From assembly GCA_035635775.1 (NCBI GenBank), contig DASQAL010000254.1, positions 13,035 through 77,034 of the forward strand: a stretch of 64,000 bases of DNA. Reading direction: 5' to 3'. Under the pieces are notes generated by a model. It was not told the origin of the DNA, searched no databases, and saw nothing but the letters and a program-made list of their open reading frames with translations. The translations under genes and the position numbers were made by a program. This DNA is from Candidatus Acidiferrum sp. (lineage in GTDB: Bacteria; Methylomirabilota; Methylomirabilia; Rokubacteriales; CSP1-6). Below, piece after piece: positions 13,094-35,424 of this stretch; the first letter of the stretch is position 1; each line of letters begins with the position of its first letter.

Positions 13094-13097
13094 GCGG

Positions 13098-13520: not shown

Positions 13521-14659
13521 GGGCGCTCGGACAGGAAGCGGCCGATCCGGACCATCGCCTCCTGGATCCGCTCGAGCGACTGGGCGTACGAGAAGCGCAG
13601 GTAGCCCTCCGCATTGCGGCCGAAATCCACGCCGGGCGTCACGCCCACGTGGGCCTGCTCGAGGATCTCGAACGCGAACGCGAGCGAGTCGCTCGTAAAG
13701 CGGCGGGCGTTGGCCAGCACGTAGAAGGCGCCGGTGGGCGGCGCGCCGACGCCGAGCCCGATGCTCCGGAGGCCGGCCACCATCGCCCGCCGCCGCTCGT
13801 CGAAGATGCGGCGGAAGCGGGCGCTCTCGTCGGCCGCCTCCCGGAGGGCGGCGAGCGCCGCCCACTGCACGAACTCGTTGGTCGAGATGAAGAAGTTGCC
13901 GTGCATGGCGGCCAGCGCGGGCATGAACTCCCGAGGGGCGATCACGTAGCCGACGCGCCAGCCGGTCATGGCGAAGGCCTTGGAGAAGCCGTTCAGCACG
14001 AACGCGTGGTCGGTGAACTCGAGCACGGTGTGCTCCGGCCCCTCGTAGGTGAGGCCGTGGTAGATCTCGTCGGAGATCACCCAGGGGCCGAGGCGGCAGA
14101 GGGCGGCCAGCCGCTCCGCGCTCAGCACGGTGCCGGTCGGGTTGGCCGGCGAGTTGACGAGGATGCCCTTGGTCCGCGGGGTGAGGCGGGCCGCCACCGC
14201 GTCCGGCCGGAACTGGAAGGCGTCCGACTCCTCCACCGGCACGTAGACCGGCACGCCGCCCGAGAACTTCACGAACTTCGGATAGCAGGCGTAGTAGGGG
14301 TCGGAGAGGATCACCTCGTCGCCCGGGTCGACCAGCGCGCTGAAGAGCAGCAGCATCGCGGGCGAGGTGCCCGCGGTCACCAGGATCTGGTCCGGCGATA
14401 CCGTCACGCCGTAGCGGGCGTGGTAGTGCTCGGCGATCGCCTCGCGCAGCGGCAGGATCCCGAGGGTGTGGGCGTAGCGGGTGCGACCGTCCTTGAGCGC
14501 CTTCTCGGCCGCCTCGCGGATGACGGCCGGCGTGTCGAAGTCCGGCTCCCCGAACTCCAGGTGGATGACGTCGATCCCCTGCCGCTCGAGGGCCTGGGCG
14601 CGCTGGAAGACCTCGACGGCCAGGAACGGCTCGATCTCCTGGGTGCGGCGCGCGATCAT
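13517..14659 (-). CDS. pyridoxal-phosphate-dependent aminotransferase, class I/II (aspartate/aromatic aminotransferase fold)
   Basis: 380-aa product; SKAFAMTGWRVGY lysine region, NSPANPTG, typical AAT_I fold order. Confidence 0.85.
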   Translation of the reverse strand: MIARRTQEIEPFLAVEVFQRAQALERQGIDVIHLEFGEPDFDTPAVIREAAEKALKDGRTRYAHTLGILPLREAIAEHYHARYGVTVSPDQILVTAGTSPAMLLLFSALVDPGDEVILSDPYYACYPKFVKFSGGVPVYVPVEESDAFQFRPDAVAARLTPRTKGILVNSPANPTGTVLSAERLAALCRLGPWVISDEIYHGLTYEGPEHTVLEFTDHAFVLNGFSKAFAMTGWRVGYVIAPREFMPALAAMHGNFFISTNEFVQWAALAALREAADESARFRRIFDERRRAMVAGLRSIGLGVGAPPTGAFYVLANARRFTSDSLAFAFEILEQAHVGVTPGVDFGRNAEGYLRFSYAQSLERIQEAMVRIGRFLSERP

Positions 14660-16961: not shown

Positions 16962-17555
16962 GTGCCTGGACGACTCGCCTCAGCACTGCTCACCGTCGCG
17001 CTCTGCGGAGTCCCCCTCGCAGGATCGGCAATCGCCGAGACCGAGCGCTGGGTTGTGGAGAGCGGCAAGAGCCGCGTGGGCTTCGACGCCTTCCACCCGC
17101 TGGACAACTTCAGCGGAGCGAGCGAGACGCCCAGCGGCGAGGTGGAGCTGGACATCGAGGACCTCAAGAAGCCCATCAAGGGCGCCCTCACCGTGCCGGT
17201 CGCGAGCCTGCGCACCGGGAAGGCCGGGCGGGACAAGGATCTCCGCCGGGCGCTCGACGGAGAGCGCCATCCGGAGATCCGCTATCGGATCGCCAAGGTC
17301 GAGAGCTCGTTCGCGTCGCTGACCGACAACACCGACGTGCTGCTGACCCTCCACGGGATCCTGTCCATGCGGGGCACCGAGCGGCCCGTGAGCTTCATGG
17401 GGCGGGTTCGCCTACGGCAGGGCACCCTCTGGGTTCGCGGCGAGAACCGGATCCGGCCCGCCGACTTCGGAATCCCGCCGCTCCGCTCCTGGCTGATCAG
17501 CATGAAGGAGCACGTCCTGGCCACGTTCGACCTCGTGCTGAGCAAAGCAAAGTAA
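16962..17555 (+). CDS. YceI-like periplasmic polyisoprenoid-binding protein
   Basis: Signal peptide then YceI-family pattern; codon at 16962 reads GTG in the sequence. Confidence 0.65.
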   Translation: MPGRLASALLTVALCGVPLAGSAIAETERWVVESGKSRVGFDAFHPLDNFSGASETPSGEVELDIEDLKKPIKGALTVPVASLRTGKAGRDKDLRRALDGERHPEIRYRIAKVESSFASLTDNTDVLLTLHGILSMRGTERPVSFMGRVRLRQGTLWVRGENRIRPADFGIPPLRSWLISMKEHVLATFDLVLSKAK

Positions 17556-17826
17556 CCTCCTGCCGTACCGTCCTTTTTCAGCCAATCCAGTGCCGTGGTC
17601 CCCTCTGAGCCCGACCCCGGGCTGAATACTCGGCCGGTGCCGCGCGTCTCTGGGAGCGACGCCGAGTCACGAGGAACAAGGTGCGCGGCTTGGGAGTTCC
17701 TCGAATGAACCAACGCTCTCTGAAACGCTAGACCACGAATCGCCATCTAAACGGCGAGGGCGTAGCCCACAAGGAATCGAGGCGGAAAGAAATACCGACA
17801 CATCTCGACGAGTACGAGAGGCCGTA

Positions 17827-19448: not shown

Positions 19449-20285
19449 TCAGCGGATCAGCTTCGCGTACTGGTCGAGCAGGGGCAGGATGACGTCGCGG
19501 CCCTCGGACGGCAGGCGCAGGATCGACCGGGTGATGCCGGCGCCCGCATAGGTCTCGAGCGTCGCCTCGTCGGGCTTGGCGCCGAAGACCGAGACCGAGA
19601 TCGTCTTCATGTCGCGCCCGGCGCGCGCGGCCCGGGCCTGGAGATCCTTGAGCCCGGCCAGGATCACGTCGCCCGCCCGGCCCCGCGGAAACCAGCCCTC
19701 GCAGAAGTCCACCACCCGCTGCAGGGTGTGGCCGCTTTCGCCGCCCAGCAGCACGGGCGGATGTGGCTTCTGGGCGGGCTTGGGCCAGGACCAGATGGGG
19801 TCGAAGTTCACGTGCTGGCCGTGGAACTGGGCCTCGTCCTTGGTCCAGATCTCCTTCATGGCCAGCACCTGCTCGCGCATCCGCTTGTAGCGACTCTTGT
19901 ACTCGGTCCCGTGGTTCTCCATCTCGTCCGCGTTCCACCCGGCCCCGATCCCGAAGAGGAAGCGCCCGCCCGAGAGCAGATCGAGGCTCGCCACCTCCTT
20001 GGCGGTGGTGATGGTGTCGCGCTCGATGATCAGGCAGATGCCGGTGCCTACCTTCAGGCGCTTGGTCGCGGCGGCGGCCGCCATCAGCGACACGAAGGGG
20101 TCGAAGGTGTGGGAGTACTCCTTGGGGAGCGGTTCGCCGCCCGGGAACGGGGTGCGACGGCTCGTCGGGATGTGGGTGTGCTCGGGCACGAACAGCGACT
20201 CGAAGCCGCGCTCCTCGGCGGCGCGGGCGAGCTCGTCGGTGCGGATCGCGTAGTCGGTGGCGAACATGCAAATACCCAAATGCAT
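19449..20285 (-). CDS. LLM-class (luciferase-like) F420/flavin-dependent oxidoreductase
   Basis: MHLGICMFATDY... TIM-barrel LLM pattern, GIGAGWNADE; GGAGG SD 6 nt upstream of chosen ATG. Confidence 0.75.
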   Translation of the reverse strand: MHLGICMFATDYAIRTDELARAAEERGFESLFVPEHTHIPTSRRTPFPGGEPLPKEYSHTFDPFVSLMAAAAATKRLKVGTGICLIIERDTITTAKEVASLDLLSGGRFLFGIGAGWNADEMENHGTEYKSRYKRMREQVLAMKEIWTKDEAQFHGQHVNFDPIWSWPKPAQKPHPPVLLGGESGHTLQRVVDFCEGWFPRGRAGDVILAGLKDLQARAARAGRDMKTISVSVFGAKPDEATLETYAGAGITRSILRLPSEGRDVILPLLDQYAKLIR

Positions 20286-20361
20286 CGCAGACCTCCTTGT
20301 GGCCCGCCTCTGGCGGGCCACGGTTTGTTTAGACCGGCATCACTCCGTGCTTCTTCCGGGC

Positions 20362-20865
20362 TCAGCCCTTCACGACGGCGGTGCGGTAGGTGTTGACCCC
20401 GGTGTCGGGCGGCGAGCCGCTGATCAGGGTGATCATGGTCGCGGCCTCGCTGCGATGGTGGGTCGCGTGGTTGACCACGTGCTGGAGCAGCGCCCCGAGG
20501 GCGACCTGGAACGCCTTGCCCTCCGTGTTCCGGTAGTGCACGGGCCGGGTGAGATCGGCTTCCGCGAGCCCCTCCACGAAGGCGCGCTGCTCCGCCTCGA
20601 ACGCGTCCCAGCTGGCGCGCAGCCCGGTCATGCTCGCGAAGTCCGCGTCGCCCCAGAGCCGGCTCGGAGACGATCCCTTCCAGCGGGTGAGCCAGACATT
20701 GTCGGCTCCATAGATGTGGGCGAACATGCCCTTGAGCGTGGGGAAGCTCCAGTGCGCGCCCATGTCGCGCGTGACCCCGTCCCCCAGGCCGGATGCCAGG
20801 TCGAAGAGCCGGCGGTTCGCCCAGCGGTGATAGTCGTAGTGCTCCCGGATCAGCGCGATGGACAT
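20362..20865 (-). CDS. DinB/YfiT-like metal-dependent hydrolase family protein (DinB_2)
   Basis: His-containing four-helix pattern HYDYHRWANRRL ... HVVNHATHHRSE typical of DinB_2. Confidence 0.6.
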   Translation of the reverse strand: MSIALIREHYDYHRWANRRLFDLASGLGDGVTRDMGAHWSFPTLKGMFAHIYGADNVWLTRWKGSSPSRLWGDADFASMTGLRASWDAFEAEQRAFVEGLAEADLTRPVHYRNTEGKAFQVALGALLQHVVNHATHHRSEAATMITLISGSPPDTGVNTYRTAVVKG

Positions 20866-20888: not shown

Positions 20889-21104
20889 TCAGTCGATGAC
20901 CGCGACGGTGTCTCCCTCCTGCACCGTCTGTCCCTCGGCGACCTTGATCTCGCGCACCTTGCCGGCGCGCGGGGCCTCCACCGGAATCTCCATCTTCATG
21001 GACTCGAGCACGATGACCGCGTCACCTTCGGCCACCGCGTCGCCCGGCTTGGTGGTGATCTGAAACACCACGCCGGTGATATGGGCTTTGACGTCCTCAG
21101 GCAT
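20889..21104 (-). CDS. small biotinyl-domain carrier protein (biotin/lipoyl attachment)
   Basis: 71 aa with VLESMKMEIPVEAP biotinylation lysine motif (AMKM-like). Confidence 0.75.
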   Translation of the reverse strand: MPEDVKAHITGVVFQITTKPGDAVAEGDAVIVLESMKMEIPVEAPRAGKVREIKVAEGQTVQEGDTVAVID

Positions 21105-21185
21105 TGAGCGCTCCTTGTCGGATTCTCGCGGCGTCTTTCGAGGCCGCCGCATTCTCTCATATCCGGCGGCCGCCCGGCGGCGCGG

Positions 21186-22337
21186 CTAGTAGGGCAGGCT
21201 CTCCCGCCCCATCAGTTCGCGGGCCACCACCATCTTCATGACCTCGGCGGCCCCGTCGCCGATCTCGAGCCCGATCACGTCGCGCATGCGTTGCTCGAAC
21301 GGCAGCTCGTCGGTGTAGCCGTAGTGGCCGTGGAGCAGGAGGCACTGGTGGATGGTGTCCACCGCGAGCCGCGGGCCCCACCATTTGGTCATCGCCGATT
21401 CCTTCGTGTAGGGCCGCCCCTGGTCCGCCAGCCAGAGCGCCCGGTAGCAGAGCCAGCGGCAGGCTTCCAGGTGGGTGGCCGCCTCCGCGATCGCGAAGGA
21501 CACGCCCTCAAAGCGCGCGAGGGCCCGGCCGAAGGCTCGGCGCTCCTTCACGTAGACCATGGTCTCCTCGACCGACTGCTGGGCCACCCCGAGGCAGGCG
21601 AGCGCGATGCCGATGCGGTTGTAGTCGAAGCCCTGCATGACCTGGTAGAAGCCGGTGCCCTCCTCCCCCAGCCGGTGGGACGCGGGCAGGCGCACCTGGT
21701 CGAAGGCCAGGACGGCCCGGCCGATGGCGCGGGTGCCCATGTCGCGCAGCGGGCTGCGCGAGACGCCCGGCCGGTCGAGGGGCACCAGGAAGGCGGTCAC
21801 CCCACGCGCCCGCCCCGCCGGATCGGTGCGCGCGAAGACGACCGCGGCCTGCGCCGCCATGCCCAGGCTGATACCGGACTTCTCCCCGGTGATGACGTAG
21901 CCGTCGCCGTCGCGCTCGGCCCGGCACGCGAGATTGGCCGCGTCCGAGCCGGCGCCGGGCTCGGTGAGGGCGAGCGCGACCACCGCCTCGCCGCTCGCGG
22001 TCGGGGGCAGCCACCGCGTCTTGATCGCGTCGCTCCCGCTGCGCCCCAGGATCTCGCCGGCCAGACCCGCGAGCTGGATCCCGTAGGTGCAGCTGAAGTC
22101 GCCGCGCCCGATCTCCTCCATCGCGATGCCGAAGGTCAGGAAGTCCGCTTCCTGGCCGCCGTAGGCCGCGGGGATGCGCAGGCCCAGCAGTCCCAGCTCG
22201 CCCATGCGCCGCCAGGCCTCCCAGGGGAACTCACCGGTCTTGTCCCACTGGGCCGAGTGCGGCGCCAGCTCCCGCCGGGCGAATTGCCGAAGCGTGCGCA
22301 CCAGCTCGTCCTGCTCGGGCGAGAACGCGAGGTCCAT
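21186..22337 (-). CDS. acyl-CoA dehydrogenase
   Basis: 383-aa segment of the listed 566-aa ORF; ACAD N/M/C domains (ALTEPGAGSD, catalytic region YGYTDELPFEQRMRD); GGAGG SD upstream. Confidence 0.85.
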   Translation of the reverse strand: MDLAFSPEQDELVRTLRQFARRELAPHSAQWDKTGEFPWEAWRRMGELGLLGLRIPAAYGGQEADFLTFGIAMEEIGRGDFSCTYGIQLAGLAGEILGRSGSDAIKTRWLPPTASGEAVVALALTEPGAGSDAANLACRAERDGDGYVITGEKSGISLGMAAQAAVVFARTDPAGRARGVTAFLVPLDRPGVSRSPLRDMGTRAIGRAVLAFDQVRLPASHRLGEEGTGFYQVMQGFDYNRIGIALACLGVAQQSVEETMVYVKERRAFGRALARFEGVSFAIAEAATHLEACRWLCYRALWLADQGRPYTKESAMTKWWGPRLAVDTIHQCLLLHGHYGYTDELPFEQRMRDVIGLEIGDGAAEVMKMVVARELMGRESLPY

Positions 22338-22345
22338 GGGGCCTC

Positions 22346-23122
22346 CTAGAACACCGGCTTGCGCTTCTCGGCGAACGCGCGCAGCCCCTCGGCGGCGTCG
22401 GCCGAGCGCATGTGCTCCGCCACCAGGCGGCGCTCGAGCTCGAGGCCTTCGGCCAGCTCGGTGTCGAACGCGCGGGCCACCAGGGCCTTCACGGTGCGGT
22501 TGGCCGATCCGCTGCCGGCAGCCAGCGCGGCCGCCAGCTCCTCCACCGCGGGAGCCACCGTCCCGGCCGGGACCACGCGATTGACGAGGCCCCAGGCGAG
22601 CGCCTCCGGCGCGGTGAGCCAGCCGCCGAGCAGCATCAGCTCCTTGGCCCGGCGCGCCCCGATGAGCCGCGGCAGCCGCTGGCTTCCGCCCCCGCCCGCC
22701 ACCAGCCCGAAGTTCGCGTGCTGATCCCCGAGCCGCGCGGCCTCGTCGGCCACCACGAGGTCGGCCACCAGCACCAGCTCGAGCCCGCCCGCGAGAGCGA
22801 GCCCGTGCACCCCGGCAATAACCGGCACCGGCAGCGCTTCGATCCGGTCGAAGACGCGATGCCAGAGACGCATGAAGGCGCCCCACCGCTCGGGATCGGG
22901 CGAGAGCTCGCGCACCGCCCGCAGGTCCGCGCCCGCGCAGAAGGCCCGGCCCGTCGCGGTCAGGGTCACCACGCGCGCGCCGGCGTCGCCCTCCACCGCC
23001 GCGCAGGCGCGATCGAGATCGCGGAGCAGCTCGGGGCTGATCGCGTTCAGCCGGTCCGGACGGTGGAGCGTGATGCGCGCGACACCGCCGGATGTCGTGT
23101 AGGTGATCGTCTCGAAGTCCAT
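22346..23122 (-). CDS. enoyl-CoA hydratase/isomerase (crotonase fold)
   Basis: 258 aa; GRAFCAGADL oxyanion-hole motif, GLALAGGLEL; GGAGG SD upstream. Confidence 0.85.
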   Translation of the reverse strand: MDFETITYTTSGGVARITLHRPDRLNAISPELLRDLDRACAAVEGDAGARVVTLTATGRAFCAGADLRAVRELSPDPERWGAFMRLWHRVFDRIEALPVPVIAGVHGLALAGGLELVLVADLVVADEAARLGDQHANFGLVAGGGGSQRLPRLIGARRAKELMLLGGWLTAPEALAWGLVNRVVPAGTVAPAVEELAAALAAGSGSANRTVKALVARAFDTELAEGLELERRLVAEHMRSADAAEGLRAFAEKRKPVF

Positions 23123-23160
23123 GGCCGCCTCCTGGTGAGCGGGCCCGCTCACATCCCCGC

Positions 23161-23958
23161 TCACATCATCGTATAGCCGCCGCTCACCGAGAGGGTCTGC
23201 CCGGTGATGAAGGCCGCGGCGTCGGAGGCGAGGAACAGCACCGCGGGCGCCACGTCCTCCGGCTTGCCGATGCGCCGCAGCGGGTAGGCCTTGGCGATCC
23301 GCGCCTGCATGTCCGGGGCGCTCCAGGCGCGGTTGGCTTCCGCGGCCCACATGCTGAGGCCGCCGAAATCTTCGTCCGAGGCGGGGATGGTCATGCCGGG
23401 GCAGACCACGTTGAGCCGGATGCCGTGGCGGCCGACCTCGCGCGCGAGACTCTTGGACAGCGCGATGACGCCCGCCTTGCACGCGCCGTAGACGCCCTCG
23501 CGGAACTCGCCCATGCGCCCGGCGTCCGAGCCCATGCTGACGATGGCGCCCACCTTGCGCGCGATCATGCCGTCGAGCACCGCGCGGGTGCAGTTGATCA
23601 TGCCCCAGAGATTGAGCTGGATCTCCCGCTCCCACTCGGTCCGCTCCTTCTCCACGAAGAGCCGGTCGTAGGTCCAGCCCACGTTGTTCACCAGGACGTC
23701 CACCCGGCCCGCGCGGCCCTCGACCTCGCGGACCATGGCCTGGACGGACTCCCAGCGGGTCACGTCGGTCGGCACCAGCGTGGCGGACGCGGCCCCCAGC
23801 CCCTCGGCCTCCGCGACGACCTTCCGCCCCTGCCCCTCGTCGATCTCGGCGACCGTGAGGTGCGCGCCCTCCTTCGCGAAGGCCAGGCTGATGGCCCGCC
23901 CGATGTTCGAGCCGCCTCCGGTGACGATCACGCTCTTGCCGCCCAGGTTCACGTTCAT
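23161..23958 (-). CDS. SDR family short-chain dehydrogenase/reductase
   Basis: TGGGSNIG cofactor motif, NNVG, catalytic YGACKAG. Confidence 0.85.
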   Translation of the reverse strand: MNVNLGGKSVIVTGGGSNIGRAISLAFAKEGAHLTVAEIDEGQGRKVVAEAEGLGAASATLVPTDVTRWESVQAMVREVEGRAGRVDVLVNNVGWTYDRLFVEKERTEWEREIQLNLWGMINCTRAVLDGMIARKVGAIVSMGSDAGRMGEFREGVYGACKAGVIALSKSLAREVGRHGIRLNVVCPGMTIPASDEDFGGLSMWAAEANRAWSAPDMQARIAKAYPLRRIGKPEDVAPAVLFLASDAAAFITGQTLSVSGGYTMM

Positions 23959-24000
23959 GGTGTGTTGGCCTTTCACGCTTTCGCGCCCGATCAACCGGCG

Positions 24001-24050
24001 CTTCTTGTTCTGATTGGGGGGGAGCGGCGGCGCTCCTCCCCCAAACCCCC
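24001..24050. terminator. near-perfect G-rich palindrome downstream of the biotin carboxylase gene (putative terminator; related in style to the 19388/50550 repeat)
   Basis: ttgggggggagcggcggcgctcctcccccaa forms a ~13-bp stem hairpin between the accC-like stop (24109) and the SDR start. Confidence 0.45.
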
Positions 24051-24108
24051 CCACCGCATTCTTACATCGCCTCGCGTCCCGATTCGCTCCGCCGCCCGTT
24101 CAACCGTT

Positions 24109-25449
24109 TTACGCGAAGGCGCCCTGCTCGACCATTTGCGTGTGGACGGTGCCCGCGCGGAAGGCGCCGCTCTGCATCACGCGCTGCTGGAATAGGATCG
24201 TCGTCTTGACACCCTCGACCACGAAGCCCTCGAGCGCCCCGCTCATCCGCGCGATGGCCTCGTCCCGCGTGACGCCGGTGGTGATCAGCTTGGCCAGGAG
24301 CGGGTCGTAGTGCACGGTGACCTCCACGCCTTCCGCCACCCCGCACTCGAGACGCACCCCGGGACCTTCCGGCAGCACGAGCCGGGTGATCCGGCCCGGC
24401 GAGGGCATGAAGCCCTTGGCCGGGTCCTCCGCGTAGATCCGGCATTCGATGCTCGCGCCCCGTTGCGTCACCTGCTCCTGGGTCCAGGGCAACGAGTCGC
24501 CTCCGGCGACGCGGAGCTGCGCCTGCACGAGGTCGAGCCCGGTCACTTCCTCGGTCACCGGGTGCTCCACCTGCAGCCGCGTGTTCATCTCGAGGAAGTA
24601 GAACTCGTCGCCCTGGACGATGAACTCCATGGTGCCCGCGTTGACGTAGCCCACCGCGCGGGCCCCCGCCACCGCGGCCGCGGTGAGCCGGGCCTTCAAG
24701 GCGGCGGACAGGTTGGGCGCGGGACTCTCCTCGACCAGCTTCTGGTGCCGGCGCTGGATGGAGCACTCGCGCTCGTGCAGATGCACCACGCGGCCCCCGC
24801 CGTCACCGAAGACCTGCACCTCGACGTGCCGCGGCGACTCGAGGAAGCGCTCGACGAACAGGGCGCCCGAGCCGAAGGCGGACTGGGCGCGCCGCTGGGC
24901 AGAGGCGAAGGCGGCGCCCAGGCCCGCCTCGTCCTTGACCCGCATCATGCCGATGCCGCCGCCGCCCGCGGCCGCTTTGATCATCACCGGATAGCCGATC
25001 CCGCCCGCGACCTCCCGGGCGGCCTCGACCGAGTCCACGGGCCCGTCACTGCCCGGCACCACCGGGACGCCCGCCCCCGCCATGAGCCGGCGCGCGCCGA
25101 CCTTGTCGCCCATCTGCTGGATGACCCGCCCCGAGGGCCCGACGAAGATCAGCCCAGCCGCCTCGCAGGCCTGGGCGAAGCGCCAGTTCTCGGAGAGGAA
25201 GCCGTAGCCGGGATGGACGGCCTGGGCGTTCGTGCGGCGGGCCGCGTCGATGATGCGCTCGACGTCGAGATAGCTCTCGCGCGCGGGCGCGGGCCCGATG
25301 AGGACCGCTTCGTCGGCGTCGGCGACGTGCGGCCAGCCTGCATCGGCCTCGGAGTAAACCGCCACCGTCCGGATGCCGAGAGCCCGGCAGCCGCGGATGA
25401 CCCGGCGGGCGATCTCCCCCCGGTTGGCGATCAAGACGCTCTGCAGCAC
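24109..25449 (-). CDS. biotin carboxylase (AccC/PycA family, ATP-grasp)
   Basis: VLIANRGEIARR, GYGFLSEN, ATP-grasp GYPVMIKAAAGGGGIGM, EMNTRLQVEHPVTE; GTG start 5 nt after upstream stop; no biotinyl or carboxyltransferase domain in this ORF. Confidence 0.85.
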   Translation of the reverse strand: MLQSVLIANRGEIARRVIRGCRALGIRTVAVYSEADAGWPHVADADEAVLIGPAPARESYLDVERIIDAARRTNAQAVHPGYGFLSENWRFAQACEAAGLIFVGPSGRVIQQMGDKVGARRLMAGAGVPVVPGSDGPVDSVEAAREVAGGIGYPVMIKAAAGGGGIGMMRVKDEAGLGAAFASAQRRAQSAFGSGALFVERFLESPRHVEVQVFGDGGGRVVHLHERECSIQRRHQKLVEESPAPNLSAALKARLTAAAVAGARAVGYVNAGTMEFIVQGDEFYFLEMNTRLQVEHPVTEEVTGLDLVQAQLRVAGGDSLPWTQEQVTQRGASIECRIYAEDPAKGFMPSPGRITRLVLPEGPGVRLECGVAEGVEVTVHYDPLLAKLITTGVTRDEAIARMSGALEGFVVEGVKTTILFQQRVMQSGAFRAGTVHTQMVEQGAFA

Positions 25450-25454
25450 GGAGC

Positions 25455-26435
25455 TCAGGCGGGCGGGGCGGCGGACGCGGAGACGGCCTCGAGCACGGCG
25501 ACGCGCCAGTCGGAGCCGGTGGGCACCCAGCGGAGCAGGAGCGTGATGCCGTCGTGGACGCCGTCGAGGCGGAGCTTCACGAGGCGCTGCTCGCCCACGC
25601 GCGCGCACGCGGCGATCCGATGGCGGCCGCCTCCGACGGCGCGGAGCCGCGTCTCGAGATCCGGGCCCAGCTCCACCTCGGGCGCAAGCCAGCGCCGGGC
25701 CCCGGCCGCGTCACCCGCGATCAGCGCATCGCCGAAGGCGTCGAGGGCCTGGGCCAGCGCGGGGGCGATCGCCCACGTGCCCGTGGATTGCTCGAGGCGG
25801 ATGAATTCGGCGGCATCGTCGCTCAGCGGCGCGGGCGGGTCCGCGGCGGCGCTCGCGCGCGTGACCGGACCCGTCCCGGTCACGCCGCCCGCCGCCTCGA
25901 GCAGCGCCCAGAGCCGGATCTCGCAGGCGCGGGCGCGCGTCTCTAGCTCGGGCGTGCGGAGGAGATGCCGCAGGACCGTCTCCCCGGCCGCCACGTGCCG
26001 CCGCTCGTCCTCGATGCAGCGGGTGAGGATCCGGCAGGTGGGCGGCTCATAGACCGCGTTGGCGCTCACCAGGTGGGCCTCGTAGGTGGCGAGCAGATGC
26101 GGCTTGAGCACGCGGTAGATCGCGACCACGCGCTCGATGGTCTGCTCGGGCCGCTCGGCGGCCTCGACCGCGTCCAGGAAGGCCACCAGCCGCGCGTTGG
26201 CGGGCTCGGAGACCTGCGCGGCGGCGCGCAGCTCGGGGAGGCGCTTGCCCCAGGCGTCCGCGTGCTGCGCACTGTCCCAGACGTGGCGGCCCATGAGCAG
26301 CTTGGCCGAGAGCTCCGGGGTCAGCGCCATCCAGCCGCCCAGGATGCGCGTCATCCGCTCGACCGCGTAGCGGTAGTGGCGGACAGTCTTCGCCGACTCG
26401 TCGACCTCGAGGTGTCCCGCAAGCGGGTGCGTCAT
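25455..26435 (-). CDS. hypothetical protein, ferritin-like (putative diiron ExxH) N-domain fused to NTF2/SnoaL-like C-domain
   Basis: YEAHL... and CIEDERRHVAAGE carboxylate/His pairs; C-terminal 120 aa pattern resembling SnoaL-like fold; assignment is inferential. Confidence 0.4.
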   Translation of the reverse strand: MTHPLAGHLEVDESAKTVRHYRYAVERMTRILGGWMALTPELSAKLLMGRHVWDSAQHADAWGKRLPELRAAAQVSEPANARLVAFLDAVEAAERPEQTIERVVAIYRVLKPHLLATYEAHLVSANAVYEPPTCRILTRCIEDERRHVAAGETVLRHLLRTPELETRARACEIRLWALLEAAGGVTGTGPVTRASAAADPPAPLSDDAAEFIRLEQSTGTWAIAPALAQALDAFGDALIAGDAAGARRWLAPEVELGPDLETRLRAVGGGRHRIAACARVGEQRLVKLRLDGVHDGITLLLRWVPTGSDWRVAVLEAVSASAAPPA

Positions 26436-26452
26436 GCGGCAGGAGCGGGCGG

Positions 26453-27208
26453 TTAGTAGACGGCCGACCGCTGGGTGGTCTTGATGAGCCGGGCGATCTC
26501 CTCGTCGGTGAAGCCGCCCTCGCGGCGCGCCTCGGTGGCGATGGAGATCGGCACGAGCTCGTGCGGGCCCTCGCGGCGGATGCCGCCCAGGTTGAAGCGC
26601 TCGTCGATGGTCTCCTGGAACTCGATCGCGAGGCGCCGCCGCTCAGGATCGCCCTCGGTGAGCCGGGTCAGCCACTTGGAGCCCATGCGGACGTGGGTGA
26701 TCTCGTCGGCCAGCACGTAGTCCACCGCCCGCTCCAGGATCGGATCGCCCATCCGGCGGGCGATGTGCACGAGCTGGTTGAACACGTCACAGGCCAGGCC
26801 CTCGAGCCCGCGGTTCACGCCGGCCACGCGGGCCGCCGCGTCCTCCGCGCAGGCGCAGCGCCAGAGGATCGTGGTCTCGGGGAACTCGCCGATATAGCCG
26901 TCCAGGTGCTCGAGGAGGCGCACGTAGATCTCCACGTGGCGGGACTCGTCCCAGACCTGCCGCGCCATGTCCATGGTGAACTCCCACGGCGCGTCCGGAA
27001 AATCGTAGACCGTGCGGCCGGCCCCTTCCATCGCCTGCAGCTCGCCCACCATGATCCCGTGCACGCGCTCCTTGATGGAGTCACGGGACAGCAGATCCGG
27101 GAAGGGGGGCAGCCCCTGGTCGATCTTGAGCTGCGCGACATCGCGCGCCCGCATCCGGATCAGGCGATCCTCGCGGGCCAGCTTGTCGTAGGCGATGGGT
27201 CGTTGCAT
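26453..27208 (-). CDS. DUF455-family ferritin-like diiron protein
   Basis: GELQAMEGAG, DESRHVEIYVRLLEHLDG, LADEITHVRMG motif spacing characteristic of DUF455/ferritin-like superfamily. Confidence 0.6.
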   Translation of the reverse strand: MQRPIAYDKLAREDRLIRMRARDVAQLKIDQGLPPFPDLLSRDSIKERVHGIMVGELQAMEGAGRTVYDFPDAPWEFTMDMARQVWDESRHVEIYVRLLEHLDGYIGEFPETTILWRCACAEDAAARVAGVNRGLEGLACDVFNQLVHIARRMGDPILERAVDYVLADEITHVRMGSKWLTRLTEGDPERRRLAIEFQETIDERFNLGGIRREGPHELVPISIATEARREGGFTDEEIARLIKTTQRSAVY

Positions 27209-27259: not shown

Positions 27260-28471
27260 CTATGCCGAAGGCAACGGGCCGCCCCGGGCCGGCTGATCGG
27301 AGGATCGGGTGCGCTGGGGCCGCCGCACGACGCTGGCCGGGCGGAGCGACTCCTCGCCGAAGCGCGCGGTGACGCGGTCCATGGCCCGCGCGAGCCGCTC
27401 CCGGCGCTGAGCGTCCGGCTCGAGCAGCGAGAGCTGGCCGGACGCGGCGGGCCCCAGAGAGGACACGGACAGCCCGATGAGCCGAACCGGCTGGCGGAGC
27501 GGAATGCGGTCGAGCAAGGCGCGGGCGCGATGGTAGATGGCGAGCCCGTCCTGGGTGGGGTCGTCGGTGTGACGGCGCGTCAGCGTGGAGAAGTCCGCGA
27601 AGCGGAGCTTGAGGGTCACACAGCGCCCCGCGTAGCCCTCCGCGCGCAGCTCGCGCGCCACGCGCTCGGCCTGCTCACGCAGGGTGGCGGCCAGCCGCTC
27701 GGCGTCACGGTGATCGCGGCCGAAGGTCTCCTCGGCGCCCATGGACTTGGGTGGCGCGAACGGCTCGACTCCACGGTCGTCGCGGCCGTGCGCCAAATCT
27801 TGAAGTCCGCGCCCACTCGGGCCGAACCGGGCCTCGAGGTACTCGGCGGGGACCGCGGCGAGCTGGCCGATCGTCTGCAGGCCCATGGCCTCGAGCCCTT
27901 CCGCGGTCACGCGGCCCACCCCCCAGAGCCGCGAGACCGGCAGCGGCGCCAGGAAGGCCGCCTCGGTGCCCGGGGCCACCACCACGAGCCCGTCGGGCTT
28001 GCGGAGATCGGAGGCCACCTTCGCCACGAACTTGTTGGCGGCCACCCCGACGGACGCGGTGAGGCGCAGCGAGGCCGCGATGCGCGCCTTGATGGCGCGC
28101 GCCACCGCCGGGCCGTCGCCGTGGAGCCCCTCGGTGCCGGTCACGTCCAGGAACGCCTCGTCGATGGAGACCGGCTCGAGCAGCGGCGTGAAGTCGGCGA
28201 GGATCGCCATCACCTCGCGGGACACGGCCGCGTACTTGTCCATGTCGACATGCAGGAAGGCGCCGTCGGGACAGAGGCGCGCCGCGCGCCCGATGGGCAT
28301 GGCCGAGTGCACGCCGAAGCGCCGGGCCTCGTAGGAGGCGGCCGACACCACGCCCCGTCCCGACGGATCCGCGCCCACGATCACCGGCCGCCCCCGCAGC
28401 TCCGGCCGGTCCCGCTGCTCCACGGACGCATAGAACGCGTCCATGTCGACATGGAGGATCGTCCGGGTCAC
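27260..28471 (-). CDS. dinB: DNA polymerase IV (Y-family translesion polymerase)
   Basis: ILHVDMDAFYASVEQRD, SIDEAFLDVTG, little-finger domain; GTG start proposed (listed ATG start lies inside the repeat element). Confidence 0.85.
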   Translation of the reverse strand: MTRTILHVDMDAFYASVEQRDRPELRGRPVIVGADPSGRGVVSAASYEARRFGVHSAMPIGRAARLCPDGAFLHVDMDKYAAVSREVMAILADFTPLLEPVSIDEAFLDVTGTEGLHGDGPAVARAIKARIAASLRLTASVGVAANKFVAKVASDLRKPDGLVVVAPGTEAAFLAPLPVSRLWGVGRVTAEGLEAMGLQTIGQLAAVPAEYLEARFGPSGRGLQDLAHGRDDRGVEPFAPPKSMGAEETFGRDHRDAERLAATLREQAERVARELRAEGYAGRCVTLKLRFADFSTLTRRHTDDPTQDGLAIYHRARALLDRIPLRQPVRLIGLSVSSLGPAASGQLSLLEPDAQRRERLARAMDRVTARFGEESLRPASVVRRPQRTRSSDQPARGGPLPSA

Positions 28472-28485
28472 GGGTGGGAGGGCGG

Positions 28486-28556
28486 TCAATCGGTTTACTT
28501 CTTTAAGCTCTTTTTGTATGCGGGGGCCTCGAAATGGCCCCCGCACTCCCCCAGTT
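28486..28556. repeat. second copy (inverted relative to 3240-3330) of the ~65-bp hairpin repeat, immediately upstream of dinB
   Basis: cggtttacttctttaagctctttttgtatgcgggggcctcgaaatggcccccgcactccccc. Confidence 0.7.
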
Positions 28557-28838: not shown

Positions 28839-29513
28839 TCAGTCCGCGGGCGCGTCCGCGGGGACGTCGGCCGCCTTCTTCAGTCGCTCGATCTCGGCTT
28901 CGAGCGCGTGGATCCGGTCCGCCATCTGCTCGAGCGTGCGGGCGAGCGGATCGGGCAGATCGGTCTGGTTGAGGTCGATCGCCCCGGTCACCCGCTCGCC
29001 GTTGCGGAATGTTATGCGACCGGGTACCCCGACGACAACACAGTTCTCCGGCACCTCGCGGACCACCACCGAGCCGGCGCCGATGCGGCTGCCCGCGCCG
29101 ATGGTGAACCCGCCGATCACCTTGGCGCCCGCGCCGATCATGACGTTGTCGCCGATGGTGGGGTGGCGTTTCTCCCGCTTGAGGCTGGTGCCGCCCAGGG
29201 TCACGCCCTGGAGGATGCTGACGTTCTCACCGACCTCGGCGGTCTCGCCGATCACGATGCCCATCCCGTGATCGATGAAGAGGCCCGGACCCAGGACGGC
29301 GGCCGGGTGGATCTCGATGCCGGTCAGGAAGCGCCCCACGTGCGACACCCAGCGGGCAGTGAGGTGCCAGCCGCCGCGCCAGAACCCGTGGGCGACGCGG
29401 TGGACCCAGATCGCGTGCACGCCCGGACTGCAGAGGACCACCTCGAGCGCCGACCGCGCCGCCGGGTCGCGCTCCAGCACCGTCCTCACATCCCGCCGCA
29501 TTCGCTCAAGCAT
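28839..29513 (-). CDS. cysE: serine O-acetyltransferase
   Basis: Hexapeptide-repeat LbH domain [27 protein letters not shown]..., N-terminal SATase helical domain. Confidence 0.88.
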
Positions 29514-29898
29514 GCCGATCGCTCCTCGTGTCCGCGCGGCTCAGCGCATCGCGCGCCGCCGCCCGCAGTCCCAGGGCCGCGACGTCCGCGGCGTGTCGCC
29601 GCGGCTCCGGCAGCCCGCCCACCGCCGCCTCGACCCGCGCCGCTGAGAGCTCCACCAGCGCTTCCAGCGCGCAGCCCGTCGCCACCTCGGTCGCGGCGCT
29701 CGCCGCCGCGATGGTCGGCCCGCACCCGTAGGCCTGGAACCGCGCCTCCACCACCTGCCCATCCCGCACGCGCAGGTGGAAGCGGACCAGGTCCATGCAG
29801 TCCTTGTACTCCCCTTCCCCCACTCCGTCCGGATTCCGCATGATGCCAGCGTTCCGCGGATTCCGGAAGTGATCGATGAGGACCGGGCTGTACTGCAT
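29506..29898 (-). CDS. NifU-like Fe-S cluster scaffold (IscU/NifU N-terminal-domain type, divergent)
   Basis: [10 protein letters not shown]-terminal motif, Cys at DCMD and YGCGPT; 130 aa. Confidence 0.7.
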
Positions 29899-29913
29899 CG
29901 GCTCGCCGGCCGG

Positions 29914-31068
29914 CTAGGCCCGGACCGGCATGACACTCCGCAGCTTCGCCACCAGCGGCACGGTCGACTCGACCACGTAGTCGATGTCCTCGGCGGTAGT
30001 GCTCCGCCCGAGCGAATGCCGCACCGCGCCCATCGACCACTCCACCGGCACGCCCATCGCCACCAGTACGTAGGAGGGCTCCACGTTGCCGGAGGTGCAC
30101 GCCGAGCCCGCCGACACGCCGACGCCCTTCAGATCCAGACCGAGCACGATGGATTCCGACTCCACGTGCCGGAAACAGACATTGCAGGTGCCAGGCAGCC
30201 GCCGGGTCGGGTGCCCGTTCAGCTGTACGTCGGGCACCCGGCCGCGGATCCCTTCCCAGAGGCGATCGCGTAGCGCGGTCAGCCGGACGGCCTCGTCCGC
30301 CATGTCCCGGCCGCGGATCTCGACCGCCCGGCCGAGCCCGACGATGCCCGGCACGTTCTCGGTGCCCGCGCGACGGCGCCGCTCGTGCTCGCCGCCGTGC
30401 TGGACGGAGACCATCTTGGTGCCTTTCCGGATGTACAGCCCGGCCACGCCCTTGGGCCCGTAGATCTTGTGGGCGGAGAACGACAGCATGTCGATGTTGA
30501 AGGCGTCGAGATCGATGGGCGCCTTCCCGAAGGTCTGCACCGCGTCCACGTGGAACGGGATCCCGTGCTCGCGGGCGATCGCCCCGATCTCCCGCGCGGG
30601 CTGGATGGTCCCGATCTCGGAGTTGGCGTGCATGATCGAGATCAGGATGGTGTCGGGGCGGATGGCCTGGCGCACCGCCTCGGGATCCACGAGGCCGTCG
30701 CCGTCGACGTCCAGGTAGGTGGCCTCGAAACCCAGGGTCTCGAGGTTCTGCACCGCCCGCAGCACCGCGTGGTGCTCGATCTTCGACGTGATGAGGTGGC
30801 CGCGACGGCGCCCCATCGCCACGCCCTTGATCGCCATGTTGTCGGACTCGGTGCCGCCCGAGGTGAAGACGATCTCCTCCTTGCCCACCCGGAGGAAGTG
30901 CGCCACCTGCTCGCGCGCGGTCTCGAGCCCCTCGCGCGCCTCCCGGCCGAAGCCGTGCACGCTCGACGGATTGCCGAATCGCTCGCTCCAGTACGGCAGC
31001 ATCGCCTGGACCACCTCGGGATGTACCGGGGTGGAGGCGTTGTGATCGAGATAGACCTTCCGGTTCAT
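29914..31068 (-). CDS. cysteine desulfurase (NifS/IscS class I)
   Basis: LDHNASTP, FTSGGTESDN, PLP-lysine region SFSAHKIYGPKG, active-site SAGSACTSG. Confidence 0.9.
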   Translation of the reverse strand: MNRKVYLDHNASTPVHPEVVQAMLPYWSERFGNPSSVHGFGREAREGLETAREQVAHFLRVGKEEIVFTSGGTESDNMAIKGVAMGRRRGHLITSKIEHHAVLRAVQNLETLGFEATYLDVDGDGLVDPEAVRQAIRPDTILISIMHANSEIGTIQPAREIGAIAREHGIPFHVDAVQTFGKAPIDLDAFNIDMLSFSAHKIYGPKGVAGLYIRKGTKMVSVQHGGEHERRRRAGTENVPGIVGLGRAVEIRGRDMADEAVRLTALRDRLWEGIRGRVPDVQLNGHPTRRLPGTCNVCFRHVESESIVLGLDLKGVGVSAGSACTSGNVEPSYVLVAMGVPVEWSMGAVRHSLGRSTTAEDIDYVVESTVPLVAKLRSVMPVRA

Positions 31069-31086
31069 TGACGCTCCCCTTTCACG

Positions 31087-31422
31087 ATGTTACGCTGCGC
31101 CCGCATGGCCTCGGCCAAACGGAAGCTGGGTCTGATGCTCTCCACCACCCCCGACCACCCGAACCTCGAGACCGCCATCGGGCTGTCCCGGGCCGCGCTG
31201 GACGGTGGCGGCGACGTCTACCTGTACCTGATCGACGACGCGGTGGACGCGGTGGACGATGATCGTCTTCTCGCGCTCGCCGATCGCGGACTCAAGCTCT
31301 TCGTATGCGCCTACGGCTGCCAGAAGCGGCGACGGCCCCTGTCCGAGCGCGCCACCAACTGCGGCCTCGTGGTGCTCACCGACGTGATCAACGGGACCGA
31401 TCGCTTCATCGCGCTCAACTAG
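31087..31422 (+). CDS. DsrE/TusD-like sulfur-relay protein
   Basis: DsrE-fold pattern with conserved Cys (LFVCAYGC) and C-terminal GLVVLTDVI; true start may be the internal ATG at 31105. Confidence 0.65.
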   Translation: MLRCARMASAKRKLGLMLSTTPDHPNLETAIGLSRAALDGGGDVYLYLIDDAVDAVDDDRLLALADRGLKLFVCAYGCQKRRRPLSERATNCGLVVLTDVINGTDRFIALN

Positions 31423-31423
31423 C

Positions 31424-31780
31424 GTGGCGAGCCCCAGCCAGCCCACCCTCGTCCTGATCTCGGAGGACCCGCGCGTCTCCCACCGCGCCAACGAGGCGAT
31501 GCGGATCGCGCTCGGCATCGTGGCCGGCGAGAACCAGGTGCGCATCGTGCTGACCGGCCCCGCGGTGCACCTGCTCGATGACGAGACCGACGATCTGGTG
31601 GACGGCGACGACATCGCCAAGTTTCGCGCCGCGCTCCGGAAGCTGGGCGTGCCCTTCCACATCCAGGGCGCCCCGCCCACCCCGGCCGACTGGAACGGCG
31701 ACGGGCATCCGGTGGTTCCGGTCACCGCGGCCGAGGTCGCCGCGATGCTCCCCGGGGCCACGCGCTTTCTCGTGTTCTGA
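31424..31780 (+). CDS. DsrF/TusC-like sulfur-relay protein
   Basis: DsrE/F-fold pattern (TLVLISEDP..., VRIVLTGPAV); GTG start abutting previous stop; no Cys. Confidence 0.55.
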   Translation: MASPSQPTLVLISEDPRVSHRANEAMRIALGIVAGENQVRIVLTGPAVHLLDDETDDLVDGDDIAKFRAALRKLGVPFHIQGAPPTPADWNGDGHPVVPVTAAEVAAMLPGATRFLVF

Positions 31781-32010
31781 TGGCCAGCTTCCTGCACCTC
31801 GTGAAGCGCGACTCGGCCGCGCTCGCGGGCGCGGTGATCGAGTCCAATCTCCGGGAGGCCGACGCGCGGGTCACGGTGGTCCTGCTGGACGGCGCAGTCG
31901 CGCCGTCGCTGCCCGCGGGCGTCGCGGTGCGACGCCTCGGCCCGGGGGACCTGGACTACGCGGGCCTGCTCGATCTGGTCTTCGCTCACGATCACGTGAT
32001 CACCTGGTAG
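31780..32010 (+). CDS. DsrH/TusB-like protein
   Basis: 76 aa ending ...VFAHDHVITW like the TusB C-terminus; TGATG overlap with preceding gene; lacks Cys. Confidence 0.5.
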   Translation: MASFLHLVKRDSAALAGAVIESNLREADARVTVVLLDGAVAPSLPAGVAVRRLGPGDLDYAGLLDLVFAHDHVITW

Positions 32011-32011
32011 C

Positions 32012-32212
32012 CTAGCGATCCTGATATTCCTCGTGCCACTTCATCTGGATCCCTTCCAGGATGCCCTCGTTGGAGCCCTTCGCGTCGTCCGCGAACCCGG
32101 GCAGCGCCACCACCCACTTGTGCAGGTCGGTGAAGCGCACGGTGAGCGGGTCCACGTCCGGGTGCGCGTCCATCAGGGCCAGCGCGATGTCCTCGGCGTC
32201 TTTCCACTTCAC
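32012..32212 (-). CDS. iscX: Fe-S cluster assembly protein IscX
   Basis: MKWKDAEDIALALMDAHPDVDPL... matches IscX/YfhJ. Confidence 0.85.
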   Translation of the reverse strand: MKWKDAEDIALALMDAHPDVDPLTVRFTDLHKWVVALPGFADDAKGSNEGILEGIQMKWHEEYQDR

Positions 32213-32259
32213 GGTCGATCCTCCATATTCGCTCGCCTCGCCTTCGGCGGCGGCTCGCC

Positions 32260-32583
32260 CTACTTCGGAATCTCCACGACGACATCTCCCTTCACGATCG
32301 CCTGACAGCCCAGCCGCGAGTGCAGGGTCAGGCCCTCCGCGGTGTCCAGGCGGTCTTCCTCGTCCTGCTCCATGGTGGACAGGTTCTGCTCGCCCTCCCG
32401 CACGATGACGTGGCAGGTGGTGCAGGCACAGCTCCCCCCGCAGTTGTGCTCGAGGTGGATGTCGTTGGCCAGCGCGATGTCGAGGAGCGACCCCGGCCGG
32501 CCGTGATCGGCCAGCGGGTACTTGCTGTCGTCCACCTCGACGGTCCGATTGAGCGGCAGGAACGTGACCTTGTGAACCGCCAT
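32260..32583 (-). CDS. fdx: ISC-type [2Fe-2S] ferredoxin
   Basis: CGGSCACTTCHV ... LGCQ adrenodoxin-type Cys pattern. Confidence 0.9.
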   Translation of the reverse strand: MAVHKVTFLPLNRTVEVDDSKYPLADHGRPGSLLDIALANDIHLEHNCGGSCACTTCHVIVREGEQNLSTMEQDEEDRLDTAEGLTLHSRLGCQAIVKGDVVVEIPK

Positions 32584-32611
32584 CAGGAGCTCTCCAGGTT
32601 GTGCACCGCCA

Positions 32612-34415
<1,804 letters not shown>

Positions 34416-34438
<23 letters not shown>

Positions 34439-35012: not shown

Positions 35013-35076
35013 GAGCGTTTCCTTAAAACAACAACGGGCCCGTCAGGGCCCGCGTTCGTGTCTTCCGGGCCGGGCC

Positions 35077-35403: not shown

Positions 35404-35424
35404 GATGCGTCGGTCTCCTTTACC

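Follow-up and report, generated by a model that had tools for sequence, protein, structure and literature searches.

A DUF455 ferritin-like gene pair in a conserved biotin carboxylase operon of Rokubacteria with apparent secondary loss of the carboxyltransferase

We analyzed a cluster of nine minus-strand genes within a 64-kb stretch of DNA (assembly GCA_035635775.1, contig DASQAL010000254.1, positions 13,035 to 77,034; hereafter the window), in which two ferritin-like proteins, a DUF455 protein and a 326-aa partner that we call gB, are encoded directly before a stand-alone biotin carboxylase (BC). The explanation that we favor, with moderate confidence, is that the cluster is a composite operon made up of a conserved carboxylase operon that has lost its carboxyltransferase (CT) gene, an inserted cassette of beta-oxidation-type genes, and a co-translated di-iron protein pair. 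It builds on what could be observed at the locus and its relatives: the gene content, the conservation of the operon, the scar at the position of the CT gene, the insertion of the cassette, the paralogy of the two ferritin-like proteins, and the gene fusions that join their counterparts in other lineages.

Composition and conservation of the operon

The open reading frame (ORF) listing, the junction sequences, and Pfam/NCBIfam scans bore out the order of all nine genes as described in the original prediction, which had been made from the sequence of the window. The cluster starts with the 251-aa DUF455 protein (26453–27208; PF04305, E = 2e-27), followed by gB (25455–26435) and the 446-aa BC (24109–25449). 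The three cassette genes come next, for a short-chain dehydrogenase/reductase (SDR), an enoyl-CoA hydratase, and an acyl-CoA dehydrogenase; then a 71-aa biotin carboxyl carrier protein (BCCP; 20889–21104), a 167-aa DinB-family protein that is a conserved member of the operon (20362–20865; PF05163, E = 2e-14), and a 278-aa F420-type luciferase-like (LLM) oxidoreductase (19449–20285; TIGR03619, 262 bits against a cutoff of 167). The LLM gene holds its same-strand, directly downstream position only in the subclade of the window and lies outside the phylum-wide core. At the other end, a DNA polymerase IV gene with IMS domains (27260–28546, minus strand) is a context gene 51 nt upstream of DUF455.

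A sequence search with gB returned 1249 homologues; the few top homologues with a source name were all annotated as "hypothetical protein" and came mostly from Rokubacteria/Methylomirabilota. We took one genome per species and mapped the proteins of the window onto the best 80 loci (designated by L numbers), with gB identities of 48–89%; 168 weaker genome matches fell outside this set, and contexts with gB below ~48% identity were sampled through five loci only. All 80 loci are Rokubacteria or probable mis-binned Rokubacteria contigs. Copies of gB 54–88% identical to that of the window also occur in metagenome-assembled genomes (MAGs) named Deferrimicrobiaceae, Limnocylindria, Nitrosotalea, Dormiibacterota, Verrucomicrobiia, Binatia, and Nitrosocosmicus (L010, L012, L014, L016, L029, L046, and L087); these seven are most likely Rokubacteria contigs placed in the wrong genome bins. 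The 10-kb region around the cluster is 99.6–99.8% identical to Rokubacteria MAG contigs, for example in GCA_009772435.1, and on sequence grounds we assign the window to an uncultured Rokubacteria (Methylomirabilota) bacterium and the region to its chromosome.

The ancestral gene order is DUF455, gB, BC, BCCP, DinB, and CT. Fifty-six species-level loci had enough downstream sequence to be scored, and among these BC was intact in 50, BCCP was found in 53, and DinB in 49; CT was intact in 24 and absent in 30, and the beta-oxidation insertion was present in 11. DUF455 lies upstream of gB in 74/74 loci, a count that holds by construction. The median spacing is 5 nt between DUF455 and gB and again 5 nt between gB and BC (maximum 30 nt, n = 50); an 8-nt overlap joins BC to BCCP in 39 of 55 species, and BCCP and DinB are typically ~10 nt apart. 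The proposed association of the ferritin-like ORFs with the carboxylase is thus retained in relatives, as seen from the frequency of an intact BC and from the short gB-BC gap. The arrangement recurs in dozens of species and is therefore not due to chance. The operon block is also more stable than its flanks; polymerase IV adjoins DUF455 in 32 of 66 loci and is 1–8 kb away in 22 of 66.

In the window, the GTG start of BC lies exactly 5 nt past the gB stop, the distance on which co-transcription had been proposed, and we consider it very likely that gB is co-transcribed with BC. No Shine-Dalgarno sequence precedes the starts of gB and BC (26435–26452 and 25449–25457, respectively), while the other seven cluster genes have a GGAG-type site; DUF455 is the only one of the first three operon genes with such a site. 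Because gB and BC have none, this suggests that DUF455, gB, and BC are translationally coupled.

BC is lost or truncated in L030, L035, L052, L054, and L080, and L054 and L080 have kept BCCP and CT; these losses are compatible with interchangeable paralogous subunits. Separately, we observed that nine species (L041, L042, L044, L068, L070, L075, L077, L082, and L084) have a tandem duplication of the DinB-family gene at a site ~0.5 kb past BCCP, with both copies 44–70% identical to the DinB of the window.

The BC matched all three Pfam domains (Biotin_carb_N, CPSase_L_D2, and Biotin_carb_C) over nearly the full profile length and, as had been described, contains no BCCP or CT domain according to Pfam. 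It scored 617 bits against NF006367 (cutoff 597), 472–475 bits against solved BC structures, and 584 bits against TIGR00514 (accC), under the cutoff of 626.5. The BCCP is a minimal carrier (Biotin_lipoyl, PF00364, E = 6e-19) with its biotinyl-lysine, K37, in an ESMKME context, so that the MKM motif is intact; its scores were 89 bits against NF004547/PRK05889 (cutoff 75) and 35 bits against TIGR00531 (cutoff 115). The CT of the relatives is a single PccB-type chain of 514 aa. When compared with solved structures, a relative's CT scored 475–512 bits to the beta chains of acetyl-CoA and propionyl-CoA carboxylases (ACC/PCC) versus 262–303 bits to those of methylcrotonyl-CoA and geranyl-CoA carboxylases (MCC/GCC); the solved relatives are, as deposited, 7w5u ("acetyl-CoA carboxylase complex beta-chain"), 1vrg, 1x0u, and PccB 1xnv. 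An acetyl/propionyl-CoA (PccB) type does not agree with the isoprenoid- or ketone-type carboxylase that had been suggested for this locus.

Carboxyltransferase loss and the inserted cassette

A BC and a free biotinyl protein without a CT had been remarked on as a mismatch with textbook pathways. The observation itself stands: tblastn with a relative's CT found no CT within the 64-kb window, and no Carboxyl_trans or ACCA match came from Pfam scans that covered, beyond the cluster, most of the larger ORFs of the window. The absence is due to a secondary deletion. In close relatives (L001, L006, L010, L014, L015, L018, L021, and L022), DinB and the luciferase-like gene are separated by a 514-aa Carboxyl_trans gene. 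Past the DinB stop, the window reads GCCCGG and then AAGAAGCACGGAGTGATGCCGGTCTAA (20329–20355, minus strand), which encodes KKHGVMPV* (eight codons and a stop), the exact CT C-terminus, and which matches the CT 3' end in L010, L014, and L021. The CT gene of the window was thus lost in place, by a deletion of ~1.5 kb.

The other CT-less members of the subclade carry different remnants. In L013, 28 CT codons are left, and in L017 six; in L024, the first 11 and the last seven CT codons are joined in frame; and in L057, no CT codons are left. Together with the window, this makes five different scar structures. We built a neighbor-joining tree on DUF455-gB-BC DNA and found two CT-less clades, (L024,(L013,window)) and (L057,L017), each nested among CT-bearing relatives, which argues for at least two independent CT deletions in the subclade of the window. 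CT has been deleted repeatedly, also in genomes that retain the cassette.

Several further observations concern this region. The in-frame joining in L024 has produced a mini-ORF of 19 codons, MKELAHDVRARKQHGVMPV* (17553–17612), flanked by DinB and the luciferase-like gene. In two long-read assemblies, CT is split by frameshifts in L001 (15951–17496) and L006 (18349–19893), and the ligase, HscA, and hydratase genes of L006 are likewise frameshift-split (also 12523–13994); since close relatives have intact genes in short-read assemblies, these frameshifts are probably sequencing errors and not pseudogenes. Between the CT scar and the luciferase-like gene of the window is a perfect 10-bp GC-rich inverted repeat, GTGGCCCGCC AGA GGCGGGCCAC (20299–20321), with a T-run on the plus strand, where no gene ends nearby; a similar repeat is found at the same position in L013 and not in L017 or L057.

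We calculated pairwise ratios of nonsynonymous to synonymous substitution rates (dN/dS) between the window and six relatives. The values were 0.06–0.09 for DUF455, 0–0.16 for BCCP, 0.14–0.21 for BC, 0.08–0.19 for the cassette genes, 0.19–0.31 for DinB, and 0.20–0.35 for gB. All genes are under purifying selection and, because the CT-less pairs (window with L013 and L017) gave dN/dS inside the same ranges, BC and BCCP are maintained after the loss of CT and are not decaying.

The cassette of the window consists of a 265-aa SDR (23161–23958; adh_short), a 258-aa enoyl-CoA hydratase (22346–23122; ECH_1, E = 7e-60), and a 383-aa acyl-CoA dehydrogenase (21186–22337). Only the subclade with a gB at least 73% identical to that of the window has these genes between BC and BCCP, and the insertion measures 3.7–5.4 kb. 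Most relatives in the subclade also have an acyl-CoA ligase gene in the cassette, and some have a second SDR; the hydratase is not present in L018 and L022, and the window has no ligase gene in its cassette. The best NCBIfam model was TIGR03207 (AliB, cyclohexanecarboxyl-CoA dehydrogenase) for the acyl-CoA dehydrogenase (439 bits; next family 311; cutoff 575), TIGR03206 (BadH) for the SDR (230 bits; next 202; cutoff 431), and TIGR03208 (AliA) for the ligase of the relative L010 (598 bits; next family 432; cutoff 792). By these scores the cassette is Ali/Bad-like, short of Ali/Bad membership, and it is a recent, lineage-specific insertion. Since it is confined to the subclade of the window, we do not count it as part of the conserved operon.

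The 150-nt spacer between BC and SDR contains a GC-rich hairpin with a 12-bp stem (24016–24042, minus strand). We rejected this hairpin as an intrinsic terminator, as it has no U-tract and the folding energy of the spacer is not better than that of shuffled sequence (z = 0.62). We also rejected the spacer as a relic of the acyl-CoA ligase gene, no remnant of which was detected there.

The DUF455-gB pair

DUF455 scored 96.6 bits against PF04305 (cutoff 34.3). Its ExxH pairs, which had been noticed in the window, are real: the ligand set E56, E88xxH91, E136, and E169xxH172 is invariant in a 30-sequence alignment at 26–33% identity. The core of the AlphaFold2 (AF2) model, residues 40–205, has a predicted local distance difference test (pLDDT) score above 90. 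A Foldseek search with this model found aldehyde-deformylating oxygenase, bacterioferritin, R2lox, and a PaaA-like protein closest, all weak matches (E ~1e-3, TM ~0.5), and bacterioferritins, ferritins, and Dps-like proteins were among the matches at E ~5e-3 to 2e-2. The cage subunits of ferritin, bacterioferritin, and Dps are ~160–180 aa long with a ferroxidase center; relative to these, the 251-aa DUF455 protein has extra segments.

No Pfam or NCBIfam model matched gB. Its AF2 model (pLDDT 86.5) shows a helical bundle at residues 11–182 and an NTF2-like alpha+beta domain at residues 206–318, in agreement with the earlier description of both ORFs before BC as ferritin-like and of the second as carrying an NTF2-like domain. 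Foldseek matches of the bundle were weak and included CADD, TenA, PaaA/C chains, and a 305-residue T4moH chain (TM 0.48, root-mean-square deviation 2.6 Å) that, judged by its length, is the beta subunit; those of the C-terminal domain were NTF2-like proteins, including 3fka. Against Protein Data Bank (PDB) sequences, neither ferritin-like protein gave a significant match, the best being R2lox and ribonucleotide reductase R2 (E 0.04–0.3). PDB chain 6nyr ("Crov588") matched at E = 0.001, with no single stretch passing on its own. Aligned with each other by hhalign, the gB bundle and DUF455 matched with a probability of 87% (E = 4e-6, 171 columns), and two of the six metal ligands are replaced in gB (S55 and K111). 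The bundle of gB (residues ~10–190) can thus be identified, from the profile comparison, as a degenerate DUF455 paralogue.

The two proteins also travel together outside Rokubacteria. An exhaustive search found ~200-aa homologues of the gB bundle alone, as well as proteins of 406–467 aa in which a gB-type bundle is fused to a DUF455 domain; the few fused proteins with a source name come from Chloroflexi/Thermomicrobiales and from one Syntrophorhabdaceae MAG. In Acidimicrobiia, gB-like and DUF455 proteins are encoded by adjacent genes, and the DUF455 protein is 44–46% identical to that of the window. Because the two are fused or adjacent in several phyla, we argue that DUF455 and gB form one functional unit, putatively of a catalytic and a degenerate subunit. 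The NTF2-like domain occurs only in full-length gB homologues of the Rokubacteria type; the shorter homologues that we examined, including those of Acidimicrobiia, are without it. The searched literature held no functional information on Rokubacteria in connection with biotin carboxylase, or on ferritin-like proteins in connection with BCCP.

As an observation on the Acidimicrobiia loci themselves, L091 (8001–11067) and L092 (8001–11050) share a conserved four-gene set of a gB-like bundle (210–219 aa), DUF455 (280–285 aa), a 183-aa unknown protein, and an alpha/beta hydrolase, and in L091 an ABC1/UbiB-family kinase gene lies directly upstream of the set. We considered the 183-aa protein as a DinB or NTF2 relative and rejected this, as it shows no similarity to either and no Pfam match.

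Genomic surroundings, interpretation, and relation to known systems

The window has a G+C content of ~70%. Outside the cluster it carries housekeeping genes: rpsB, frr, pyrH, uppS, and rplM, the isc and Bat/MoxR operons, and genes for a 2-oxoacid dehydrogenase complex, for sigma-70, and for malic enzyme. The isc-type Fe-S assembly region (29506–37562, minus strand) lies 2–10 kb upstream of the DUF455 operon, in the same layout in close relatives whose upstream flank was examined. It has two cysteine desulfurase/scaffold pairs (Aminotran_5 + NifU_N), IscA, HscB, HscA, ferredoxin, and IscX, together with three small opposite-strand genes, one of them weakly DsrE-like, and is followed by a serine-acetyltransferase-like hexapeptide gene. 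The Bat/MoxR-type operon (41047–49177, minus strand) encodes a MoxR AAA ATPase, a DUF58 protein, a 494-aa unknown protein, and then two more genes, for a 1465-aa BatA-VWA-VWA-GATase1-like protein and, last, a TPR protein. The 971-aa protein encoded at 10128–13043 (minus strand) combines a PMT_2 glycosyltransferase region with an LmeA-like lipid-binding C-terminus; its gene is overlapped by long ORFs with high G+C at third codon positions, 12365–13093 (minus strand) and 12915–13604 (plus strand), and gene calls are therefore uncertain there.

The enzymatic activities that we propose for the composite operon are inferred. BC, BCCP, and CT would together make a three-subunit carboxylase of the acetyl/propionyl-CoA type, in which BC would use ATP and bicarbonate to form carboxybiotin on K37 of BCCP, and CT would transfer the carboxyl group to the alpha-carbon of a short acyl-CoA. 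After the loss of CT, BC and BCCP would work with a CT encoded elsewhere, presumably a paralogue. The cassette may take an alicyclic or branched acid through a single round of beta-oxidation-type chemistry. DUF455 and gB would most likely pair as a heterodimer, DUF455 being the catalytic and gB the degenerate subunit; in this heterodimer, DUF455 is predicted to bind two metal ions via E56, E88, H91, E136, E169, and H172 and would most likely activate O2 on a hydrophobic substrate, and the NTF2-like domain of gB may aid substrate binding.

A metabolic link between the di-iron pair and the biotin enzymes is favored by three features: a phylum-wide operon conservation tighter than that of the flanks, gaps of 5 nt with no ribosome-binding sites, and the confinement of the NTF2-like domain to gB proteins that are linked to BC. 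Other findings weigh against the composite-operon explanation or parts of it. The fold matches of both ferritin-like proteins are weak and fall on iron-storage proteins and oxygenases alike, and the searched literature gives no function for DUF455 (PF04305, At1g06240). There is no reductase, ferredoxin, or effector gene for an oxygenase in the operon across the 80 loci, the nearest ferredoxin being that of the isc operon. BC and BCCP lie beside the di-iron pair in none of the five contexts sampled outside Rokubacteria, and because the pair has no such neighbor outside the phylum, co-transcription in the operon may lack metabolic meaning. The trans-acting CT is an assumption. For the cassette, all three assignments fall under the curated equivalog cutoffs, and a BadI-type ring-opening hydrolase, which would be a second crotonase-family gene, is absent.

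We weighed this explanation against others. The pair might handle iron in the way of bacterioferritin, Dps, or rubrerythrin, whether as a ferroxidase, for storage, or for detoxification; it would then have no part in acyl-CoA metabolism and would share no more than a transcript with BC. The series E, ExxH, E, ExxH is also the ferroxidase pattern of bacterioferritin; the iron-storage proteins among the Foldseek matches and the isc operon upstream point the same way, and the very strong constraint on DUF455 suits a housekeeping role. However, the best fold matches are oxygenases (aldehyde-deformylating oxygenase), and a heterodimer with a degenerate paralogue and an NTF2-like fold is typical of oxygenases and not of cage-forming ferritins. 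Polymerase IV, HTH (helix-turn-helix), and acetyltransferase genes separate isc from DUF455, and this upstream flank is rearranged in about half of the species, with polymerase IV displaced or absent. We regard an iron-handling role as unlikely. The original prediction had raised the possibility of an unusual degradation pathway that depends on carboxylation (acetone, ketone, or isoprenoid type), which in its full form would take in the di-iron pair, BC, BCCP, the beta-oxidation genes, DinB, and LLM. The single strand and the short gaps fit such a pathway, as does the placement of the cassette inside and not beside the carboxylase operon, and the extra ligase and second SDR of relatives recall Atu/Liu clusters. 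Yet the SDR, hydratase, and dehydrogenase are a subclade-only insertion, present in 11 of the 56 species, into an operon in which BC and BCCP otherwise overlap by 8 nt; the CT of relatives is not of the MCC/GCC type; no HMG-CoA-lyase-like (3-hydroxy-3-methylglutaryl-CoA lyase-like) gene and no thiolase were found; CT has been deleted repeatedly, cassette-bearing genomes included; and LLM stands outside the core. We give the single pathway little credence.

A more radical proposal is that BC and BCCP have their actual partner in the di-iron pair, so that carboxybiotin, CO2, or a biotin-tethered species would be delivered to the heterodimer, instead of or besides CT. DUF455, gB, and BCCP are the most persistent members of the operon (the first two by construction), whereas CT is lost in 30 of the 56 species and BC in few; purifying selection on BC and BCCP persists once CT is gone; the gaps are ~5 nt, with gB and BC lacking Shine-Dalgarno sites; and the NTF2-like domain of gB is found only where BC and BCCP are linked. 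Against this, the fused forms and the closest systems outside Rokubacteria, the Acidimicrobiia pairs, have no BC or BCCP nearby, and L054 and L080, which keep BCCP and CT without BC, are a better fit to interchangeable paralogues. We know of no precedent for a biotin-dependent di-iron enzyme, and we consider the proposal very improbable. If true, it would define a novel type of biotin-dependent enzyme that can do without CT, and it would explain both the repeated deletion of CT with DUF455, gB, BC, and BCCP still coupled and the occurrence of the NTF2-like domain only in BC/BCCP-linked gB. Finally, the carboxylase part might be decaying, with BC and BCCP as non-functional remnants, as the repeated CT deletions and the lost or truncated BC genes could suggest. 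We find this scarcely credible, given that BC and BCCP are intact ORFs with low dN/dS, CT-less pairs included, that the biotinylation motif is intact, and that both genes are intact in the 99.6–99.8% identical contigs from at least four assemblies.

Overall, our analyses support the idea of a composite operon, in which the missing CT and the beta-oxidation genes, the two features that made the cluster seem odd, have ordinary evolutionary causes. DUF455 is a widespread ferritin-like family without a known function, to which the locus adds three leads: a degenerate partner, an invariant ligand set in an unusually constrained protein, and an operon with BC and BCCP. DUF455 appears to work with a degenerate paralogue, which has a gene of its own in Rokubacteria and Acidimicrobiia and is part of a fusion protein in other lineages, including Chloroflexi, so that DUF455/gB is a defined gene pair and a candidate interaction. 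Throughout one whole phylum, a biotin carboxylase and a minimal biotin carrier share an operon with DUF455. As a natural experiment, the locus also bears on the modularity of split-subunit carboxylases: the repeated loss of CT with BC and BCCP kept implies either a sharing of subunits with paralogues or a role of BC and BCCP that does not depend on CT. The locus further cautions annotators that a pathway read from the gene order of a single genome can mislead, as the beta-oxidation genes here were inserted recently.

Among known di-iron enzymes, the pair invites comparison with the hydroxylase alpha/beta pairs of multicomponent monooxygenases, such as toluene 4-monooxygenase, and with PaaA/PaaC of phenylacetyl-CoA epoxidase, in which a catalytic subunit likewise goes with a degenerate paralogue: DUF455 has the full ligand set, and gB has a homologous bundle minus two ligands. 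In contrast to multicomponent monooxygenases and PaaABCDE, the Rokubacterial pair comes without reductase, ferredoxin, and effector genes and has an NTF2-like domain fused to gB, and its heterodimer is proposed from gene fusion. The likeness to the single-subunit aldehyde-deformylating oxygenase is a weak fold match of DUF455.

The cassette recalls the cyclohexanecarboxylate pathway of Rhodopseudomonas palustris (AliA, AliB, BadK, BadH, and BadI), in that its ligase, dehydrogenase, and SDR best match Ali/Bad models and a crotonase-family hydratase is present. It differs in its sub-equivalog scores, in having no BadI-type hydrolase and, in the window, no ligase, and in sitting inside a carboxylase operon. 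The inventory of the subclade (acyl-CoA ligase, acyl-CoA dehydrogenase, enoyl-CoA hydratase, one or more SDRs, BC, small BCCP, and CT) is also like that of Atu/Liu clusters, and presumably resembles the yngJIHGFE operon of Bacillus subtilis as well. In contrast to Atu/Liu clusters, the CT of relatives is PccB-type rather than MCC/GCC-type, the beta-oxidation genes of the subclade are a late insertion and not ancestral, and an HMG-CoA lyase is missing, with no HMGL-like family named in the Pfam scans of window genes or in the precomputed domain lists of the examined loci. We rejected an Atu/Liu-type (gamma-carboxylation) pathway because the CT of relatives is PccB-type.

Acetyl-CoA carboxylases of the AccA/B/C/D type have a CT split into AccA and AccD and a full-length AccB of ~156 aa. 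The Rokubacterial set differs from these in its 71-aa BCCP, its single PccB-type CT, and an accC score under the cutoff. The BCCP of the window shares its length, domain, and MKM motif with the 71-aa biotinylated carriers of the PRK05889 family, which we take to include Rv3221c of Mycobacterium tuberculosis, with YngHB of B. subtilis presumably in the related PRK08225 family; its genomic context is different, and the partner enzymes of PRK05889 carriers are themselves poorly defined. With the three-subunit acyl-CoA carboxylases of archaea and Thermotoga, the Rokubacterial set has in common a stand-alone BC of ~446 aa, a small BCCP encoded on its own, and a one-chain CT (514 aa in the relatives). 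It departs from them in that the window and about half of the Rokubacteria species have lost CT by deletion, the BCCP is a 71-aa biotinyl domain only, a DinB-family gene lies between BCCP and CT, and two ferritin-like genes precede BC in the operon.

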